Source: a virus
Lineage: Duplodnaviria; Caudoviricetes
Direction: 5' to 3' (one strand)
DNA: 59,753 nt
Virus record (IMG/VR): IMGVR_UViG_3300006802_000105
Location: 1 to 59,753 of that record
In this document: piece after piece, positions 44,787 through 59,753 of the stretch
How the letters are laid out: each line of letters opens with the position of its first letter
Position numbering within the stretch: the stretch's first letter is position 1
Translations under genes and position numbers: made by a program
The notes under the pieces: model-generated
Told to the model about the DNA's origin: nothing
The model's database searches: none
Seen by the model: only the letters and a program-made list of their open reading frames with translations

Positions 44787-44814
44787 ATTATACAGAGTCA
44801 ATTGTCAACGTCAA
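44787..44814 (-). promoter_or_regulatory. Near-consensus sigma70 promoter
   Basis: On the - strand: TTGACG, 16 nt, TATAAT; upstream of 44761. Confidence 0.75.
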
Positions 44815-46361
44815 GCTATTTCTTGTCTATAGAGGTCTACCAGCCCTTGATGAAGGTCGATCTTCCCGTCCAGCAGGGCGTACATCCGCCGCTCCACCGG
44901 GCTCCCTTGCAGTCGCACGACGGTGACCTTGTTGGTCTGCCCCGCACGGTGGGCACGGGCGTTGCCTTGGATGTACAACTCCGCTGACGGCACTGGCCCC
45001 CACCACACTACGGTGTCTGCACGGGTGAGGGTAATCCCATGTGCAGCAGCTTGCGGGATAAGCAGGATGACCTTGGGGTCTACCTCCGTTTGGAACTGCT
45101 TAATGAAGTCCGCCCGCTGCGCCGCAGGGGTTCCGCCGTGGATAGCACGGAACGACACTCCAGCCTTTGCAAGCTCTTGCTCCAGCATCTCCAGCGTGTG
45201 CCTGAACGGCACGAACACGATGACCTTGTGGGCGGTCTGTGCAACCACATCGAGCAGTTCGTTTACTCGGTTGCTGACATCGAACTCAACAACTTCTTTC
45301 TCGGTGGTGTACGCGCAGCCCGCGCTGACTTGCAGGAGTTTGTTAAGTAGCCCCGCTGCGTTTACCGCCGTGATTTCGGCACCTGCGGCTTGCGCGACCA
45401 TCGACTTCTTGATTACGTCATAGTAATGTTGCTGCTGCTTGGTAAGCGGGACTTCGCGGTTGGTGTACAACATATCGGGAAGGTCTAGGCACTCTTCCTT
45501 CGTAAAGCGAATCGCGGGTTGCAGTACCTTGAAAACTGTATCCTGCGCAGTACGCTTTGGTGCCCATTTGAACTGCGTAACTTTGTACATCACCATGTCT
45601 CGGAATGCTCCGGCAAAGCGCGGCACCGCTGCTGGGTTCACCAGCTTGGCAAGCCCATACGCATCTACGGGTGACTGCGACGCAGGTGTGCCCGTCATGA
45701 GCCACAGGCGCGTCGCGGGCGTAACCAGACTGTTGAGTGCCTTCCAACGGTCGGTGCTTGTGGACTTGATGGCAGAGGCTTCGTCCACAATGATGAGGTC
45801 GAACTTAGCCGCTGCTAACTCCTCACGAACAACCTTTACGCCGTCGAAGTTGATGATGACAAACTCGTAGCCACCGTTGATGACGCGCAGCCGCTTGTCG
45901 CGTGCCCCCGATGCAATCGCCACCGTGCGATGCATAACCGTCTTGAACAAGTCCGAGCGCCACGCAGTGTCCATGATGGACACAGGGCACACCACCAGAA
46001 CGCGGGTTACTTCGCCTTGGCGCATCAGGTAGTCCGCAGCCCACGCTGCTGCACTGGTCTTGCCCGTCCCTGCTTCGGATAGCACAAGGCACTTAGGATG
46101 CGTTGCCAAGAATGCGGCGGTCTCTCGTTGGTGCGAGAACGGGGTGTAGACCCCGGGCCATTTGTACCGCCCGATGATGGGGTGCGGCACATCTTTGATT
46201 TGCAAATTGCGGAGCAGCTTCGCTTCGTTGTGCCCCCAGTTGACGATGATTCGTGCTTTGTCGCCGTTGCGGGCGATGACCTTGCTCTTGGGTATCAGGG
46301 CAGTGATCTGGTCTGCCTTTCGTGTCACAAACTGCAAAGCCCGGTTGTCTATTATTTCCAC
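44811..46361 (-). CDS. SNF2-family (SF2) helicase
   Basis: AGTGKT, IIVDEAS, MTGTP, HGITLT, QGNARAHRAGQ. Confidence 0.92.
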   Translation of the reverse strand: MEIIDNRALQFVTRKADQITALIPKSKVIARNGDKARIIVNWGHNEAKLLRNLQIKDVPHPIIGRYKWPGVYTPFSHQRETAAFLATHPKCLVLSEAGTGKTSAAAWAADYLMRQGEVTRVLVVCPVSIMDTAWRSDLFKTVMHRTVAIASGARDKRLRVINGGYEFVIINFDGVKVVREELAAAKFDLIIVDEASAIKSTSTDRWKALNSLVTPATRLWLMTGTPASQSPVDAYGLAKLVNPAAVPRFAGAFRDMVMYKVTQFKWAPKRTAQDTVFKVLQPAIRFTKEECLDLPDMLYTNREVPLTKQQQHYYDVIKKSMVAQAAGAEITAVNAAGLLNKLLQVSAGCAYTTEKEVVEFDVSNRVNELLDVVAQTAHKVIVFVPFRHTLEMLEQELAKAGVSFRAIHGGTPAAQRADFIKQFQTEVDPKVILLIPQAAAHGITLTRADTVVWWGPVPSAELYIQGNARAHRAGQTNKVTVVRLQGSPVERRMYALLDGKIDLHQGLVDLYRQEIA

Positions 46362-46463: not shown

Positions 46464-46742
46464 CTACCTAGTCGCTTCGCGCTTGCTAATTTGCGACTTC
46501 ATGGCACCAGTTTTGGTGCGGGAAAAACTACGGTTGGCGGAGCGCGATGCCGCCCGCAGGTTGCCGAGATCGGACGAACCGCCCTTGGACATAGCCTTCT
46601 TGTGGTCTACATCCACATTGTCCGGCAGCGTGCCATGCGCCTTCTCGTACGCCCGTCGAGCCTTGTGCCGCTCTGACTGCGCGGCAAGTTGCTTCGGGGT
46701 GCCTTGGTACCGCTCATATTCGAGCTTGTAATTTCTCGCCAT
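46464..46742 (-). CDS. Small HNH endonuclease
   Basis: DVDHKKAMSKGG...NLR...NRS; GGAGG RBS before ATG 46742. Confidence 0.8.
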   Translation of the reverse strand: MARNYKLEYERYQGTPKQLAAQSERHKARRAYEKAHGTLPDNVDVDHKKAMSKGGSSDLGNLRAASRSANRSFSRTKTGAMKSQISKREATR

Positions 46743-46750
46743 ACGGCCTC

Positions 46751-47410
46751 CTACCTGTGATGTTCGCACGTTGTAACGGGGCAAAAGCCGCACAAGCCAC
46801 TCGGGCGTGCGTTCCATACACCACCGTCCAGCGCAGCCTCGATCATACTCGCGTGCCCTGCCCATTTGGAGAAAATCTCAGGGAGTTGCGCTCGTGTGTA
46901 CTCGGCTTTCACAATGTCGTTTGCAACAACAAACAGCAACGCACCCTTGACCGAATTGATCTTGGGGTAGTGCGCCATCACCATTGCCGCCATAAGCTCC
47001 AACTGCTCCGTGTCCGCATAGCGGCTCGACTTACCTGTCTTGTAGTCCCCAATGCGGGCGATGCCCTTCTCGTGGTTGAGGGCTAGGTAGTCAGGGACGC
47101 CCCGGAACCATACGTCCTTTGCAAAGAACTCGCAGGGTGAGAAGTCGCGCCTGATGCCGAGCTTGAGTTCGCATTTGAGTTCCCCCGCGACCCGGGCGAG
47201 AGGCTCCACAAAGCGCTCGTAGTGCTTAAGATTTTCTGGAAGGGGTGTTCCGTTTTGGATGTAGAGTTCAAAGGCTTTATGCACACGCTCCCCGTAGAGC
47301 GTGGCTTCCGTGGGTGATGATTTGAAGTTCTTGAGAATGCGAACTTCGTGGTACCTGCGCTGGCATCCAAGGTAGTCTTTGATAGAGCTATAGGAATGTG
47401 CAAGCGCCAT
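46751..47410 (-). CDS. PD-(D/E)xK Cas4-like exonuclease
   Basis: SYSS...C, G..VH, RGVPD, DYKTGK, QL, C-terminal CGFCPVTTC; probable ATG 47410. Confidence 0.85.
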   Translation of the reverse strand: MALAHSYSSIKDYLGCQRRYHEVRILKNFKSSPTEATLYGERVHKAFELYIQNGTPLPENLKHYERFVEPLARVAGELKCELKLGIRRDFSPCEFFAKDVWFRGVPDYLALNHEKGIARIGDYKTGKSSRYADTEQLELMAAMVMAHYPKINSVKGALLFVVANDIVKAEYTRAQLPEIFSKWAGHASMIEAALDGGVWNARPSGLCGFCPVTTCEHHR

Positions 47411-47448
47411 AGGTTTTTTCTGCGTTGAGTGGGCGCTAATTGTAGCGG

Positions 47449-50190
47449 TTAGCACTCCCCATAGGAATAGCCGACGCCCGACTCGCAAGCCAGCGGCAAG
47501 CCTGCCGCCCATTTGGGGTTCCATGACATGCACTCCTCTACGTATGCTCTTGCTTCTTTAGCATCTGACTCCTTGGCAATGATGGCAACCGCGTCATGCA
47601 CGGTCAGCACCACCTTGTACCGCTTGGCGATACGCAGCATCTGCTCCGCAACAACGCAGCGGGCGACGGCCTGAGTGAAGTTCTCCACGCAGTTATGAAC
47701 TAGAAATGGTCCCTCAGAACCTCGGACCACGAAGCGCGTTCTGGGTCCTGCATTGAGGAGGTCATAGACAGGTTCCGGTGCCATCGGTATAGAAGAGTGG
47801 ATCGCGGCACCCCCGTTATGGACTGCGCTTTCGCCATGTCTATCGGTAGCGCTCCGCGCCGATTCCCCGCTTGTATTTTGTACGACACCCAACGGCAGTT
47901 CTCCGGTGTGTAGTCCCCTGAGTTGTCTGTTCGATCCAACGTCAACCCCGGCTGATACGAAGGCCCCATGTCTGCCCAAAATGCCTCGAACGATTGCTCC
48001 CACCGCGTACACACCCTTATCCCACGCCCGCCGTAGTTGTGCCACGCCTGATGCGAAGGTAGCCGACATCGATCCCTCATAGACCTCCACACCCAATATG
48101 CTGGATGGCCCGAAAGTCCGTGCGATTTCGACTTCTGCCCGACGGCACATCCGCAAGACGGGTTCCCGCCCCGCTTGGCGTACTTCACCACATCTATCGC
48201 GGTGCGCGTTACCAATGTCCCGCACTGGCACTGGAACTCCCAAACTGAACGTCTCTCGGCTCCCGCATACCTCACTGCCGTCAGGCATCCAAAAGTCTGC
48301 CCCGTGTAGTCCCTCGCACGATGATGCACTTTGCCACCCTTCTGTTGTAAGTACGTTGTGATCTGGCGTCATGCGGACACCGTTAAGTACGATGGTAATC
48401 TTTTCACCTTGATATGTCAACCCGCTATGGTTGACCCACTCAACACCGTCCCACACTCGGTCCTGTACCGTAACGGAGGCTATCTGAATCCACCCGCGCT
48501 CAGTGAGCACTTCAGTATCGGCCGCTAGGCACTTGCCGCCGTATATGTAGACCGGCAAGCATTTCGATATGTAGCGCCACTGGTTCTTCTCTTCGCCCTC
48601 GGCGTTCTTCATGAGTACGCGCTTGAGGTCAGGGTATCGGATGAACAACCCGCTTGGTAGCGTCAGCCCTTCGTCAGGTACGACGTTGACGACGCCCGGT
48701 ACATCGACCCGCATTGCATTGCCCATTGCCAGCGCCCGCAGCGCAGCCTCGCCCTGCCTCCACAACTCTGGAATCTTCGGGTACGTGGCGCGGTACTTAT
48801 CGACGATGCGCTTGGCCTCCTCCTCGGACACATCCACCTTGGCTTGCATCTTCAGGAACGCCCGCAGCTTCTTGTGCCCGACACCGTAGCCCGCACCAAG
48901 AATGACGGTCTTGCCCACCTGCCGCTGCCCCGGGTCGATCTGATCCACAGGCACGTCGTAGATGGAGCTTGCCATGATCTTGTACACATCCTGCTTGTCT
49001 GCAAACGCTTGTACCAAGTCATGCTGCCCAGCCAGCCACGCCAGCGTGCGGGCTTCGATCTGCGAAGAGTCGCAGTCAATCACAACATGCCCGGGCGGTG
49101 CCATGATTGCCCTCTTGATGCGCCCTGCGCTGGGTCCACGCGCTGGCAAGTTCTGGAGGTTCACGGAGTCCTGCCCGCTCCACCTACCTGAGTGTGCGCC
49201 GTAGTACCGCAATGGCACAGGGAACGCCCCGCGCTCGGCCATGCCGATGAACCGTTGCGTGCGTGTCTCTTCCAGCGTTGTCTTGTTCCCTAACCGTGCA
49301 GCAACAAGTCCCTGCACATCCGGGTCGGAATGCTCCTCCAACGCCTTGAAATCCTCATCCGTCTTTGCAAACGCATAAGTCATCTTGCCTGTAGTGGGGC
49401 TGCGCTTCATGGGCGGCTCGACGTTGAACCGACGCAGCAAGTCCGCGAACTTGTCATTGGACATCAGCAGCTTCTTGATACCGTCAATGCCCTCGGTGTA
49501 CACCGCATGTACGTAATCCGGGTCACCGCCCGCCAGCATCATGTCGCGTACCCTGTCCAGCAGTGCTTCCTTGCGGTCTACAACATCTTTCAGATGCGTT
49601 TGCAGCGCCGCCTTGTCCAGCACCAGCACGGGCTCCACGAACATCCGCAGCGTAAGGTCGATAAGCTCCAGTTCCTGCCGGGGGAAGCCCATTCCCATGT
49701 ACTTACAGAACAGAGAGTAGGTTAGCTCCGTGTCGTTCTTGCAGTACTCCCCGTAGCGCTCCAAGGCTTCCGTGCCAAAGTCCGCGTAGCGAAGGCCCAG
49801 TGCATGGATTACCTCGTCTCCCTTGGCACCGATGTCGGCCCGCGCGGCTTGCGCTGCAAGGCTATGTGACTGCGCGTGCGGGAACAACGCACGGGACATA
49901 CCCAGCGTATCCAGCCACGCCTTCGGCTGCACTCCGTAGTGCCAGTGCAGAATGGCCGCATCAAACGCCGTGTTCTGGCACACAACAAACTTGCTCGACC
50001 AGTCTATGCTCTTCAGCACTTCGGCTACTTGCGGCTTTGGATACCACTGCGCCGGGGCATCGTCGATCTTGAGGCTGAGTCCAATCACCTCGAACTCCGG
50101 GCTACGAACGTACTCCTCGGTAGTGATCTTGCTAAGACTGAACTCCCTGCTGTAGTAAGTCTCGATGTCGATTGTCACGATCTGGGGCAT
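47449..50190 (-). CDS. polA: Family A DNA polymerase, intein-containing
   Basis: Exo I DIET, Exo II NTAFD, Exo III YCKND; motif A DSSQIEAR, motif [15 protein letters not shown], motif C TVHD. Confidence 0.93.
47692..48531 (-). mobile_element. Intein (280 aa; residues 554-833) in the DNA polymerase
   Basis: Block [11 protein letters not shown], block B MTPDH, block F PVYDL...FVV, block G VHN/C; removal restores [15 protein letters not shown]. Confidence 0.93.
47700..48329 (-). CDS. HNH homing endonuclease nested out-of-frame inside the intein
   Basis: [11 protein letters not shown]...CQCG...SCGC...HG...W.SMRDRC...[20 protein letters not shown]...TLDRTDN.G.Y.PENCRW...Q..N; GTG start; +1 frame relative to polA. 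Confidence 0.9.
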
Positions 50191-50326
50191 TGGTTCTCCA
50201 AGGTTGGTTTGTTTTGAGCGCGTACCGCTTACGGTCGCGCTCTCGTTTTGCAGCTAATTGCTGTTCTTCTTTAGCAGCGGCAACGGCTCCACCTTGGAGC
50301 GCGTTGCGTACATCTTTGATGGTCAT
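50132..50326 (-). CDS. Hypothetical protein
   Basis: ATGA-coupled to VRR-NUC; overlaps the polA start. Confidence 0.5.
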   Translation of the reverse strand: MTIKDVRNALQGGAVAAAKEEQQLAAKRERDRKRYALKTNQPWRTNAPDRDNRHRDLLQQGVQS

Positions 50327-50619
50327 GGCCGCTTCTTGAGCGTCTCGATTGTATGGGGCAGCGCCGCCACCCCATCCTCGTTTACCACTATCGCCACGCC
50401 ACCTGCCTTGGTAATTGCGGCGATCTCTCTGTCTTGCAGCACAGTCGTCTTACCCGCACCCGCCTTGCATTCGATAGCCAAGTAGCGCCCATCCACGCAG
50501 CAGATGATGTCGGGGATGCCGACCCGCCCGTAGCCATTGGCGGCGGGGGAAAAATGGTACACCCCATGTGCGTCAAGGATCTTCTTTACCGCAGTCTTAA
50601 CCTTTGCTTCAGGGGTCAC
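50323..50619 (-). CDS. VRR-NUC / Holliday junction resolvase-like nuclease
   Basis: TPEAKVK...GIPDII...AIECKAG...LQ...I...GG. Confidence 0.88.
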   Translation of the reverse strand: MTPEAKVKTAVKKILDAHGVYHFSPAANGYGRVGIPDIICCVDGRYLAIECKAGAGKTTVLQDREIAAITKAGGVAIVVNEDGVAALPHTIETLKKRP

Positions 50620-50816
50620 TTCCAGTCATCCTCCGCGTTTTTGGCACGCTGCCGCAGCATCTTCATGGCGTCTTTGAGGTCGAGCCTGAGTTGCTCGATT
50701 GCTGCCTCCTGAGCTTGCAGCTTCAGGTACGCATCCTGTGCGAACCGCACAAGTGTTTCAAGATTCCACGCGCCAAAGTTGGGGATGTCAGGTTTATCCC
50801 GCTGCCCTTGAGTCAT
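50616..50816 (-). CDS. Small coiled-coil hypothetical protein
   Basis: Probable ATG 50816 coupled to the upstream stop; 'PNFGAWNLETLVRFA'. Confidence 0.6.
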   Translation of the reverse strand: MTQGQRDKPDIPNFGAWNLETLVRFAQDAYLKLQAQEAAIEQLRLDLKDAMKMLRQRAKNAEDDWK

Positions 50817-51031
50817 CACGCATCTCCTTTCAGTTCGAGTTCGATTAACTTCTCCAGATAGTGCCTCGCCTTGCGTAGGTCTTCGACGCCGCCCTTGTCG
50901 CGCCACCTCGAAACGTACTTAACGATGTTGCCCTCGAAGTACCCTAGCTTGTTAGCTGCGATGTAGTCCCACGGCTGAATCGCTTGCCCTTTATAGTGGA
51001 TGCCGCCGACTTGCGTGCTGTTTGCTGTCAT
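50816..51031 (-). CDS. DUF3310-like protein
   Basis: QVGG.HY...GNIVKYVSRW..KGGVEDLRKA.HYL; GGAG RBS before ATG 51031. Confidence 0.85.
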   Translation of the reverse strand: MTANSTQVGGIHYKGQAIQPWDYIAANKLGYFEGNIVKYVSRWRDKGGVEDLRKARHYLEKLIELELKGDA

Positions 51032-51176
51032 GACTTCTCCGTTGTTTGTCAGGCACAACGATCTCCTGCGTTGTAAACCTGTGCTTGTTGCCGCACTCAT
51101 ACCTGCGCCGCTTGCCCTTGGGGTTCGTGCGCGTCTCCATGACTTCCGTCCACGCCCCGCATTCGGGGCATCTCAC
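50991..51176 (-). CDS. Zn-ribbon protein (similar to the NrdR N-terminal ribbon)
   Basis: CPECG..T.V.ETR...RRRYEC...HRFTT.E. Confidence 0.75.
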   Translation of the reverse strand: MRCPECGAWTEVMETRTNPKGKRRRYECGNKHRFTTQEIVVPDKQRRSHDSKQHASRRHPL

Positions 51177-58270: not shown

Positions 58271-59446
58271 TCACACCTCCAAATGAATCGTCGTACCGTA
58301 GGGAGCGACCATGTCGCTCGTAACTGCCCACAGCGTGGGCCACTCGCTGACCCCCCAAGAGCCTACGTACCCGTCCGTGAACTGCACGATGGCTTGCGGG
58401 TTGATGCGCTTCTCGCGCAGGTAGTCGAACAGAACAGACCCGTCGGTGCCGCCACCGCCACGGGGCTTGAGAGACTGCACAGCAAACTGACCGTCCTCGA
58501 ACACCTGATGACCACGGATGCTGGTGTCCCAATACACAACGTGGAGCTTTCCGGGCTTGATGTCCTCCATGATGTTTGTAATCTCGGATACAAACGCGGT
58601 CATCTCCGTAGTGTTGAAGCACGAACCGGACGTGTCGAAGCCGATCACCAACTCCGCAAGCGTGGTGCCAAGCATGGACGGCATATACACATCGTCAGTA
58701 ATGAACCTACGGTTGGGCTTGCGCCATGAGGACTCGTCGCGCCCTGCACAGGTCTCGGTGATGAAGTCACGCAGCACCTTGCGCCAGTCGATCTTGGAGT
58801 TCAGCAGATCGCCGAACGTACCGTCTGCGCCACCGGAACCCTTACCCTGCATCTTGCGACGCATGAGTTCACCCTGACGCATGGCACGGTCGATTTCCTT
58901 GGCACGATCCTCCGCCGTCTTCTCGTCTGCTTCCTTAGCACCTTCCCAGTCGTGGGAGTCAATCCCATCGTTCCCCGGCTCATCGCCGGGGCCTTTGCCG
59001 GGGCCTTTGCCCTTCTTCTCTTTCTTGAGGTCGTCGAATATCTGGCGCACTGACCAGTTGCGGTACTTCTGATCGGGCTGCACACCTTCCTTGGGCATAC
59101 GCACAAACCCGAAACCTGCGTCCATGATGATCAGAGACAGGTTCACGAAGTGGTCTGCCGCGAGATTGGCAAGTCGTGCGTCCTCATTCCAGAGTTCCCG
59201 CCATACATACAGGTGCCGATACGCTTTGTGCGTCGCCTCGTGCAGCACCAACAAGTTCAACTCGGCATCTGTGAGCTTGTCCACGAACTCCGGGTTGTAC
59301 GTTACGTCCCACCCGTTGGTACAGGCGGTTGGGATGCTGGTGCTTATGACCACCTTGCCACACGCCAGCAAGCCAGCGTAGGCACAGAACTGTTTGTGGC
59401 GCATGATTGCGACATGCGACTTACGAATTCGATCCAATGCGTTCAT
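58271..59446 (-). CDS. Metallopeptidase + vWA domain protein (DUF2201-like)
   Basis: PTACTNG, HEATH (HExxH), MIDAS DTSGS, GGGGTD, FTDGY. Confidence 0.88.
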   Translation of the reverse strand: MNALDRIRKSHVAIMRHKQFCAYAGLLACGKVVISTSIPTACTNGWDVTYNPEFVDKLTDAELNLLVLHEATHKAYRHLYVWRELWNEDARLANLAADHFVNLSLIIMDAGFGFVRMPKEGVQPDQKYRNWSVRQIFDDLKKEKKGKGPGKGPGDEPGNDGIDSHDWEGAKEADEKTAEDRAKEIDRAMRQGELMRRKMQGKGSGGADGTFGDLLNSKIDWRKVLRDFITETCAGRDESSWRKPNRRFITDDVYMPSMLGTTLAELVIGFDTSGSCFNTTEMTAFVSEITNIMEDIKPGKLHVVYWDTSIRGHQVFEDGQFAVQSLKPRGGGGTDGSVLFDYLREKRINPQAIVQFTDGYVGSWGVSEWPTLWAVTSDMVAPYGTTIHLEV

Positions 59447-59448
59447 GA

Positions 59449-59753
59449 TTACTCCTTAGAAAAAACAATACTTGCAGATAGCAGCAACCAAGCTGCGTGG
59501 TTGTCCGTATCAGATGCGGCAACCAGTCGCAGTGCGTCGGGCTCCAATGTCAGGTACACGGCGCTGTCGTCCCATGCGATAAGCGCAGCTACTGCGTCCA
59601 GTGCTGCGCCCAGTGCTGCGTCCCATGCTTCGTCCCGTGCTGCGCCCAGTGCTGCGCCCAGTGCTGCGCCCAGTGCTGCGCCCCGTGCTGCGTCCAGTGC
59701 TGCGCCCAGTGCTGCGTCCCATGCTTCGTCCCGTGCTGCGCCCCGTGCTGCGC
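59449..59753 (-). CDS. Partial gene with tetrapeptide (D/G)AA(L/R/W) repeats (5' end outside the window)
   Basis: Reads ...AARGAARDEAWDAALGAAL...DAVAALIAWDDSAVYL...WLLLSASIVFSKE*. Confidence 0.75.
   Translation of the reverse strand, partial: AARGAARDEAWDAALGAALDAARGAALGAALGAALGAARDEAWDAALGAALDAVAALIAWDDSAVYLTLEPDALRLVAASDTDNHAAWLLLSASIVFSKE
59593..59753 (-). repeat. 12-bp tandem coding repeat
   Basis: G(G/A)CGCAGCAC(T/G)G units. Confidence 0.9.

Follow-up and report, generated by a model that had tools for sequence, protein, structure and literature searches.

A Class-1 Intein in a Phage DNA Polymerase Gene Shares Its DNA with an HNH-Like Gene Nested in the +1 Frame

Introduction

The metagenomic phage genome IMGVR_UViG_3300006802_000105 of IMG/VR (59,753 nt, ~95% complete by CheckV), the whole of which is called the window here, carries a family A DNA polymerase gene (polA) with an intein in it, and the DNA of that intein also encodes, in the +1 frame, a 209-aa protein of an HNH-like phage nuclease family. 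The nested open reading frame (ORF) is a real gene under purifying selection, and over the same bases the polymerase frame is constrained solely by stop avoidance, with no constraint at the protein level. We regard this dual-coded architecture, together with its frame-specific pattern of selection, as very probable. All coordinates are window positions, and polA, the intein and the nested gene all lie on the minus strand.

We propose that the insertion is a composite mobile element, in which a mini-intein and the 209-aa gene share the same DNA within polA. The class-1 mini-intein would be translated within the polymerase precursor, its two lobes tied by a disordered linker of ~155 residues, and its self-excision would leave an active polymerase. 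The nested gene, which belongs to an otherwise free-standing phage family, would be translated independently, with initiation at the GTG at 48329 that follows the sequence AGAAGGG. Its product may cut intein-less polA near the YGGK/VVEN site during co-infection, and repair from the intein-bearing allele would then copy intein and nuclease gene together, that is, by homing. To this combination of independent initiation and nuclease-driven homing we assign a probability of about 0.6.

The Polymerase Gene and Its Intein

The polymerase ORF matches Pfam DNA_pol_A (E=1.3e-37, split over two stretches) and phrog_17, DNA polymerase (E=6.3e-91). Its parts are the following:

47449 to 50190, minus strand: family A DNA polymerase precursor ORF, 913 aa, unbroken across the intein
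48532 to 50190, minus strand: N-extein, polymerase residues 1-553, with the C-terminal end ...IYGGK
47692 to 48531, minus strand: class-1 intein from Cys1 to His-Asn, 280 aa, polymerase residues 554-833
48256 to 48531, minus strand: N-terminal splicing domain of the intein, blocks A and B, intein residues 1-92
47791 to 48255, minus strand: polymerase-frame linker, a 'shadow' translation of the nested gene, intein residues 93-247
47692 to 47790, minus strand: C-terminal splicing domain of the intein, blocks F and G, intein residues 248-280
47449 to 47691, minus strand: C-extein, 80 aa and stop, its first residue being the +1 Cys

An earlier sequence-only reading of this DNA had placed an intein here with its splicing blocks and a +1 Cys, and all of these are present in the sequence at the coordinates it gave: Cys1 opens CLAADTEV, block B reads MTPDHNVLT (with TPDH), block F follows, and block G, FLVHN, is succeeded by the +1 Cys of CVEN. 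Residues C1, T55, H58, D257, H279 and N280 are invariant among 16 aligned inteins, and both Cys1 and a Cys at the +1 position occur in 19/19 nested loci. In relatives without an intein, polA ends in an 80-aa tail that starts VVEN or CVEN.

When the complete intein is modelled with AlphaFold2 (AF2), residues 1-92 and 248-280 are predicted with confidence, the mean predicted local distance difference test (pLDDT) of 10-residue blocks being 87-97 (87-97 in the N-terminal and 93-95 in the C-terminal domain), and residues 93-247, about 155 in number, have a pLDDT <50. This linker stretch of the polymerase frame has no Pfam match. When the model was compared with the PDB by Foldseek, all 9 matches at E<=0.001 were inteins with a probability of 1.00, the best being the Spirulina DnaX mini-intein 7cfv (E=1.1e-4). 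As modelled, the insert is a class-1 intein with a Hint fold, and its intact catalytic residues, in an essential gene, indicate that excision should join ...YGGK to CVEN....

The Nested Gene and Selection in Two Frames

The second ORF lies wholly within the intein, starting one base past a polymerase-frame codon boundary and hence in the +1 frame. It spans the DNA from just past block B to 8 nt short of the intein end, and its TAG stop (47700-47702) falls within the Leu-Val codons of block G. Two features are to be named here:

47700 to 48329, minus strand: nested HNH-like (His-Me-finger-related) gene of a homing-endonuclease family, 209 aa, GTG start, TAG stop
48337 to 48343, minus strand: Shine-Dalgarno (SD)-like AGAAGGG, 7 nt 5' of the GTG, which the polymerase frame reads as the Glu-Gly-Trp codons after block B

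The nested protein matches phrog_374, 'HNH endonuclease' (E=4.1e-55), and phrog_3377, likewise annotated 'HNH endonuclease' (E=7.8e-43), and has relatives in 1028 phage records; the +1 translation contains Cys knuckles, a YGGRGI motif and the third motif named in the sequence-only reading, DRxDNxGxYxPxNCRW. Family searches of the two frames gave nuclease homology in the +1 frame and none for the polymerase-frame linker. No second copy of the gene was found in the window.

Selection on the polymerase frame was assessed by synonymous resampling, in which the +1 protein was held fixed over 20000 trials with the polymerase's own codon usage. Four loci, the window and three phage isolates, gave these results:

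Window: 0.13% of trials stop-free (P=0.0013), 5.8 stops expected
Hamiltonella phage APSE-1: <0.005% of trials stop-free (P<5e-5), 12.1 stops expected
Caulobacter phage GB2A: 0.05% of trials stop-free (P=0.0005), 7.2 stops expected
Shewanella phage SFCi1: 0.6% of trials stop-free (P=0.006), 4.9 stops expected

None of the 36, 46, 50 and 51 at-risk dicodons in four loci has a first codon ending in T, and T-ending codons are common elsewhere. The equivalent of the polymerase frame in 63 free-standing homologues has a median of ~11 stops and is stop-free in two, and in the nested loci it has 0 stops in 20/20. The two free-standing genes with an open second frame (L041 and L080) were searched for a hidden host gene and none was found, their open frames being put down to chance in GC-rich DNA. 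A side observation on the same two family members (L041:2812-3453 and L080:2806-3519) is that their N-terminal Cys-knuckle module is duplicated.

The distribution of variable sites over 19 nested loci, sorted by codon position of the polymerase frame, changes character at the borders of the overlap:

Intein N domain (polymerase residues 554-620): variability 0.41, 0.34 and 0.66 at positions 1, 2 and 3
Overlap: variability 0.59, 0.40 and 0.36 at positions 1, 2 and 3
Intein C domain (polymerase residues 807-833): variability 0.29, 0.24 and 0.63 at positions 1, 2 and 3

Within the overlap, variability is thus highest at position 1 of the polymerase frame, the third codon position of the +1 frame. 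Translated in the +1 frame, the same bases have an amino-acid identity of 48.5%; translated in the polymerase frame, they have 26%. The ratio of nonsynonymous to synonymous substitution (dN/dS, NG86) was computed between the window and 10 relatives; the +1 frame gave 0.09-0.19 and the polymerase frame 1.3-2.3, values to be taken qualitatively since the proportion of synonymous differences (pS) is 0.56-0.72, near saturation; the ratio is the lower one for the +1 frame in 55/55 pairs.

These data uphold most of what the sequence-only reading had claimed for the overlap. The 209-aa ORF in the +1 frame, with its GTG, the upstream AGAAGGG and a stop in block G, is as described; the dual coding of one DNA stretch is borne out by the phrog_374 match and the frame-specific dN/dS, and the description of the polymerase frame as a stop-free linker by the low pLDDT and the resampling of the window. 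The nuclease-like gene does have a start codon of its own, purifying selection acts on it, and the proposed test of stop avoidance and dN/dS found the polymerase frame kept open and the +1 frame constrained.

An open +1 frame might instead be the decaying relic of an in-frame domain, displaced by two compensating indels and still open by chance in GC-rich DNA. The window has 57% G+C, and the two chance-open frames among the 63 free-standing homologues are what this explanation would expect. It is nevertheless highly improbable in the face of the low +1-frame dN/dS and of an ORF that is intact not only in each of the best 80 of 496 intein relatives described below, but also in APSE-1, where the G+C content is 46% and about 12 stops are expected in the other frame. 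The failure to find an in-frame version among proteins of 367-2000 aa is a further, weak, argument against a relic.

Distribution of the Nested Arrangement

The same +1 offset is found in the isolates APSE-1, GB2A and SFCi1. The RefSeq record of APSE-1 annotates a nested 'HNH endonuclease' coding sequence (CDS), P46, inside the polymerase P45. For P46 (L001:2729-3151) RefSeq uses an internal start that gives 140 aa, and the homologous open frame from a GTG at 2501 comprises 216 aa; judged from this frame, the public annotation probably cuts the gene short and covers just its 3' part.

In each of the 17 phage records that match the nuclease best, it lies inside a polymerase gene. With the nuclease as query, 17/80 IMG/VR loci were nested and the rest were free-standing genes. 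The intein as query returned 496 IMG/VR relatives, and all of the best 80 of these 496 carry the +1 nuclease-like ORF with the host frame open, in inteins of 260-316 aa; a mini-intein or an in-frame nuclease was seen in none of these 80. Bacterial assemblies and metagenome-assembled genomes (MAGs) contributed 10 nested loci out of 45, in records labelled, for example, Parapusillimonas, Alicyclobacillus, Chloroflexota, Clostridia and Oscillospiraceae. All these loci are related to one another, and their numbers are not counts of independent events. Fused in-frame forms were absent among proteins of 367-2000 aa, which is weak evidence, and the long HNH-frame ORFs in L031, L051 and L076 were searched for Hint domains with none found. 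A DNA-level search of phage records gave only one weak match and was replaced by searches at the protein level.

The window is a metagenome-assembled virus record, and in such a record two compensating indel errors could in principle displace an in-frame HNH domain. The likelihood that the arrangement is such an assembly or sequencing artefact is negligible: the offset is identical in the independently sequenced APSE-1, GB2A and SFCi1, in all of the best 80 of 496 IMG/VR relatives and in the 10 loci from bacterial assemblies, and this conservation across independent records refutes it. The suggestion of the sequence-only reading that the arrangement might be an intermediate in endonuclease capture is not supported. 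Because the best 80 of the 496 intein relatives all keep the +1 nesting, the arrangement looks stable rather than transitional; the search for in-frame fusions, weak as that evidence is, also found none.

The copy in an Arsenophonus endosymbiont record (L175, APSE-like) has a nuclease frame open over only 161 aa and a host frame open over only 382 aa. It resembles the remains of a prophage in decay, in agreement with remarks on Arsenophonus in the available text of PMC7313666.

Insertion Sites, Host Genes and a Fractured Relative

The 80 closest polA relatives are 52-83% identical to the window over residues 300-553. The intein is absent from 74/74 complete polA genes among them, in which the sequence runs uninterrupted through YGGK-VVEN-FCQAVAR; the remaining 6 end at a contig end, and one of these 6 bears the element. 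Where the element is present in polA, it occupies one of four insertion points (marked by a slash), all within six codons:

K/CVEN: window, L210-L218
GGKx/CEN: APSE-1, GB2A and others
xxEN/CxQA: SFCi1, L004 and others
ENL/CQA: L281, L288

The same intein with its nested +1 gene is also hosted by genes that Pfam identifies as SNF2-family helicases (L022:1830-4262 and L023:586-3888). The L023 helicase has, in addition, a second intein at residues 169-462, which Pfam does detect. Three loci (L176, L262 and L278) were assigned to the SNF2 helicase group by similar junction motifs alone. Junctions unlike those of polA or SNF2 occur in L264 (LHDVSN/CIRL), L269 (GRFFKN/CTQG) and L286 (KLLQIS/CGAV), each with a nested gene, and to judge from their junctions these may represent further host genes.

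The closest IMG/VR relative of the window found via the nuclease, L004, is 70% identical to it in the splicing domain, 68% in the nuclease and 48% in the host polymerase, and its insertion point differs from that of the window. Across loci, the identities of splicing domain and nuclease are positively but weakly correlated (Spearman 0.28), and because of this weakness no claim of co-evolution is made. Intein presence is also reported to vary among APSE polymerases in the available text of PMC7313666. A sporadic distribution, several sites and two host genes are what an active homing element looks like.

A relative in which the same components are arranged differently is L149:510-3415, whose polymerase is 62% identical to that of the window and whose site corresponding to the window insertion is empty. 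This polA is broken at another site (...GRFSG/C) into three ORFs that overlap by 131 and 20 nt. At the end of the N-part is an intein N-half (40% identical to that of the window, E=4e-11), the middle ORF is a free-standing gene of the same nuclease family (E=8e-12), and the C-part starts MLVPVYDILNCGPRHRF...LVHN/S and is 63% identical to blocks F-G of the window (E=4e-7). By these sequence matches, L149 is a 'fractured gene' layout built from the same intein and nuclease families. Nuclease matches occur at the place of the L149 break in L150 and L151 as well.

Expression of the Nested Gene

An ATG, GTG or TTG is present in the short open stretch (median 12 codons) before the conserved N-terminus in 67/67 distinct loci, where ~34/67 would be expected by chance, and in 44/67 the start codon stands at the exact position of that of the window. 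An SD-like 4-mer lies 4-16 nt 5' of the start codon in 67/67 distinct loci, by a criterion that is lax, and its conservation is inseparable from constraint on the intein because it is built from conserved Glu/Asp-Gly-Trp codons. No conserved RNA structure was predicted around the nested start (0 pairs in 10 sequences).

The nuclease could alternatively be made inside the intein by programmed frameshifting, in which ribosomes would enter the +1 frame downstream of block B and return ahead of block F. What speaks for this is the SD-like sequence a few bases before the change of frame, which presumably bears a loose resemblance to the prfB +1 site. The bases at the junction (GGCAAAG, GGAAAAG, GGCGCTG, GGAAGAA and others in the alignment) have no conserved slippery motif, two opposite shifts would be needed, the strong stop avoidance of the polymerase frame across the overlap would be needless, and the gene has a start codon of its own in every one of the 67 loci. 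We consider frameshifting very unlikely, and independent internal initiation is the best reading of how the nested gene is probably expressed.

Other candidate signals around the gene amounted to little. A sigma-70-like promoter at 48420..48392 on the minus strand was dropped, the count of such sites being equal to the expectation from shuffling. A terminator-like hairpin with a 5-bp stem and a T-run (47721..47708, minus strand) lies over the nested stop codon inside the polymerase ORF; the region has 4 terminator-like hairpins against 2.1 expected by shuffling, which is within noise.

The Nested Protein and Its Possible Action

An AF2 model of the nested protein, built on a 67-sequence alignment, has a mean pLDDT of 88.5. 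In it, the N-terminus forms a small beta-barrel that bears four conserved Cys (C34, C36, C59 and C61), and a helical region precedes a strand-strand-helix core at residues 130-155; a helix-turn-helix (HTH)-like segment is found at the C-terminus. VIA-align likens residues 2-55 to an SH3-like barrel with middling Z. The core, with strands at 130-133 and 145-148 and a helix at 150-155 in the model, corresponds to one more feature:

47862 to 47942, minus strand: putative beta-beta-alpha metal-finger core, nested residues 130-156, LDR..Y..N..W....N

R133, Y140, N144, W147 and N156 are invariant in 67 sequences. The only solved sequence relative is I-HmuI (E=0.013 with the single sequence, 0.078 with the profile), whose residues 66-117 align with the core; N144 and N156 fall on the corresponding Asn residues of I-HmuI (the loop Asn and the metal-ligand position of the helix), and Y140 lies in the loop between the two core strands. 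According to the available text of PMC5714182, the general base in His-Me fingers is the His that closes the first core strand, PacI lacks this His and has a loop Tyr in its role, and two His-Me groups without the His and an equivalent Tyr have probably lost nuclease activity.

Several results weigh against the proposed explanation. Opposite I-HmuI His75 stands Arg133, an Arg in 67/67 family members, and because the position of the general-base His holds an invariant Arg, the canonical HNH mechanism is excluded. Searches of the nested protein against Pfam, its HNH models included, and against NCBIfam returned no match, and a Foldseek comparison with the PDB gave none at E<=0.001, the best being the HNH nickase 4h9d at E=0.59. 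The best VIA-align match of residues 64-159, to PacI (Z=5.4, rmsd 3.2 over 78 residues, 17% identity), is below the trust level of the tool. The protein is, on this analysis, best termed HNH-like, with a putative nuclease activity. On the side of the intein, Pfam does not detect the Hint domain in the window polymerase. The near-saturated pS, the relatedness of the loci and the two reservations about the SD-like motif, given above, count on the same side.

No sequence match to PacI was found, and the ESM Atlas gave just viral clusters that were unnamed or auto-named ('AP2 domain-containing', 'HNH endonuclease family'); in none of them was a common Pfam family present. The description of the gene as a complete HNH endonuclease, made from the sequence alone, needs qualifying, the catalytic His position being an invariant Arg. 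A mechanism in which the Tyr substitutes for the His is a hypothesis that we put forward for the nested protein.

If the protein does not cut, it may be purely DNA-binding, as a regulator or as a helper recruiting another nuclease, and the element would spread by other means or be inherited vertically. This explanation would fit the Arg in place of the general-base His, the fate of the His-Me groups that lack both His and Tyr, the want of a Pfam HNH family match and the C-terminal HTH-like segment. It is less easily squared with the invariance of Y140 in the loop, comparable to the His-replacing Tyr of PacI (PMC5714182, available text), PacI being also the best structural match, or with the invariant Asn positions of the motif. 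Nor would it readily explain an element that is missing from 74/74 complete close polA genes, yet occupies several sites and two host genes. We judge it unlikely, and continue to favor homing driven by a nuclease that is translated from its own start.

Genomic Surroundings

The polymerase sits in a replication module on the minus strand, which also includes the following:

44811 to 46361, minus strand: SNF2 helicase
46464 to 46865, minus strand: 133-aa ORF with a sub-threshold match to Pfam HNH_3 (21.0 bits vs a cut-off of 24.8)
46751 to 47533, minus strand: PD-(D/E)XK nuclease
50323 to 50619, minus strand: Hjc-like resolvase
50816 to 51100, minus strand: DUF3310 protein

Two genes downstream of polA, the 133-aa ORF carries a D-H-K-K ... 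N motif of the classical kind, and it overlaps the PD-(D/E)XK ORF at the 3' end of the latter; it may be another free-standing HNH gene, of canonical type. Elsewhere in the window, a 12-nt tandem repeat (consensus CTGCGCCCAGTG, 13.5 copies, 84% matches) occupies 59592-59753 and runs past the end of the record; 58985-59011 holds another, shorter 12-nt repeat with 2.2 copies.

Implications

Taken together, the observations can be joined into a wider reading, in which dual coding is the obligate and stable form of a large family of composite elements, with protection of the nuclease gene from decay, insertion sites that shift by single codons, jumps into SNF2 genes, resolution into fractured genes and a His-less, Tyr-dependent nuclease. 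We offer this reading tentatively, and rate its chances as somewhat short of even. If it is true, nesting in the linker of an intein in an essential gene would guard the nuclease gene from deletion and nonsense decay, because a frame-breaking lesion would also kill the polymerase, and a His-less, Tyr-dependent chemistry of the His-Me finger would be one that no homing endonuclease has yet been shown to use. The nested gene in any case points to a large family of putative phage nucleases in which Arg replaces the canonical His and the loop Tyr is invariant.

Inteins that seem 'mini' or 'degenerate', their middle reading as junk, may be mobile elements that are fully armed, with a nuclease concealed in a different frame. 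Such elements escape gene callers and intein surveys; the nested CDS is annotated only in the APSE-1 RefSeq record, and there only in its 3' part. Related phage polymerases contain both nested and fractured versions of one intein and nuclease family, and the combined unit is found at several neighboring sites and in two host genes; this could make the order 'splicing domain first, endonuclease later' testable. For the engineering of inteins, the family suggests that an unconstrained linker of ~155 residues can be accommodated by an intein that splices in cis.

Comparison with Known Systems

The sources cited in this section were available in part, and each comparison holds for the available text. 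Endonuclease genes outside the intein frame or strand are not new, later papers citing Gorbalenya 1998 for them (bioRxiv 10.1101/2025.01.02.630785, 10.64898/2026.09.14.751524), and this is where the sequence-only reading, which had inferred a third architecture, went too far. Actinophage inteins with an endonuclease VII-like gene in frame 3, and with antisense LAGLIDADG and Vsr-like genes, are described in bioRxiv 10.1101/2025.01.02.630785, and a cyanobacterial dnaX intein with a LAGLIDADG gene in a +2 ORF in bioRxiv 10.64898/2026.09.14.751524; the dnaX endonuclease is antisense according to the former preprint and in a +2 ORF according to the latter.

Set against the accepted layouts, the window intein differs from the canonical bifunctional intein in that the frame of the intein encodes no endonuclease domain between blocks B and F. 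It is also not a split intein or fractured gene, the polymerase being a single 913-aa ORF, and that layout is the one found in L149. With a same-strand ORF, an open host frame and purifying selection, it belongs with the inteins that have an out-of-frame nested endonuclease.

The dnaX intein (bioRxiv 10.64898/2026.09.14.751524) is similar in having a same-strand out-of-frame endonuclease ORF between the splicing domains, an in-frame stretch predicted to be disordered, an SD motif 5' of the nested start, and a low omega for the nested reading frame together with a high one for that of the host; the secondary invasion of a mini-intein which that preprint proposes is a further likeness. The two systems differ in the nuclease, the frame and the host, these being LAGLIDADG, +2 and bacterial dnaX there and a His-less HNH-like protein, +1 and phage polA or SNF2 helicase here, and mini-intein alleles exist there, whereas the best 80 of 496 relatives here include none.

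The actinophage inteins (bioRxiv 10.1101/2025.01.02.630785) likewise have their endonuclease in a non-intein frame and related to free-standing phage genes; they still appear mobile, and their authors warn that annotation pipelines miss them, both of which we count as likenesses. In contrast to the present family, the same-strand case there is endonuclease VII-like and in frame 3, the HNH inteins there are in-frame, and the polymerase host listed is DNA polymerase III alpha, unlike the family A polA here.

Fractured genes (Dassa et al. 2009, PMC2677866) share with the window a free-standing-type endonuclease gene between intein halves and short coding overlaps. The host ORF in the window is, unlike theirs, unbroken and the intein contiguous, and it should splice in cis; the nuclease families named there are GIY-YIG and Vsr-like, not HNH-like as here. 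ShiLan (PMC11855218) has an out-of-frame HNH in a phage DNA methylase without any intein, and resembles the window in its GTG-initiated out-of-frame HNH, stop-free host ORF and a stop at the very end of the insertion. It lacks splicing domains, and its insert is thought to stay as a loop of the methylase, whereas the intein here should remove it.

At the protein level, I-HmuI/HNH_3 and PacI (His-Me groups 2 and 20, PMC5714182) also combine Zn-knuckles with a DNA-binding module of the HTH type, and PacI, like the nested protein, lacks the catalytic His and has a loop Tyr. The nested protein is unlike I-HmuI in the Arg at the His75 position and in the missing Pfam HNH match, and unlike PacI in that the HTH is N-terminal there and C-terminal here (PMC5714182).

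Full-text searches found no paper on an intein of polA or SNF2 genes in which an HNH-like gene is nested out of frame, nor one in which APSE-1 P46 is viewed in this way, and the supplementary tables of the actinophage preprint might list more cases; this intein family, this nuclease family in inteins and these host genes were not found in print. The architecture itself is already known from other inteins, and the family described here is apparently a large addition to it.

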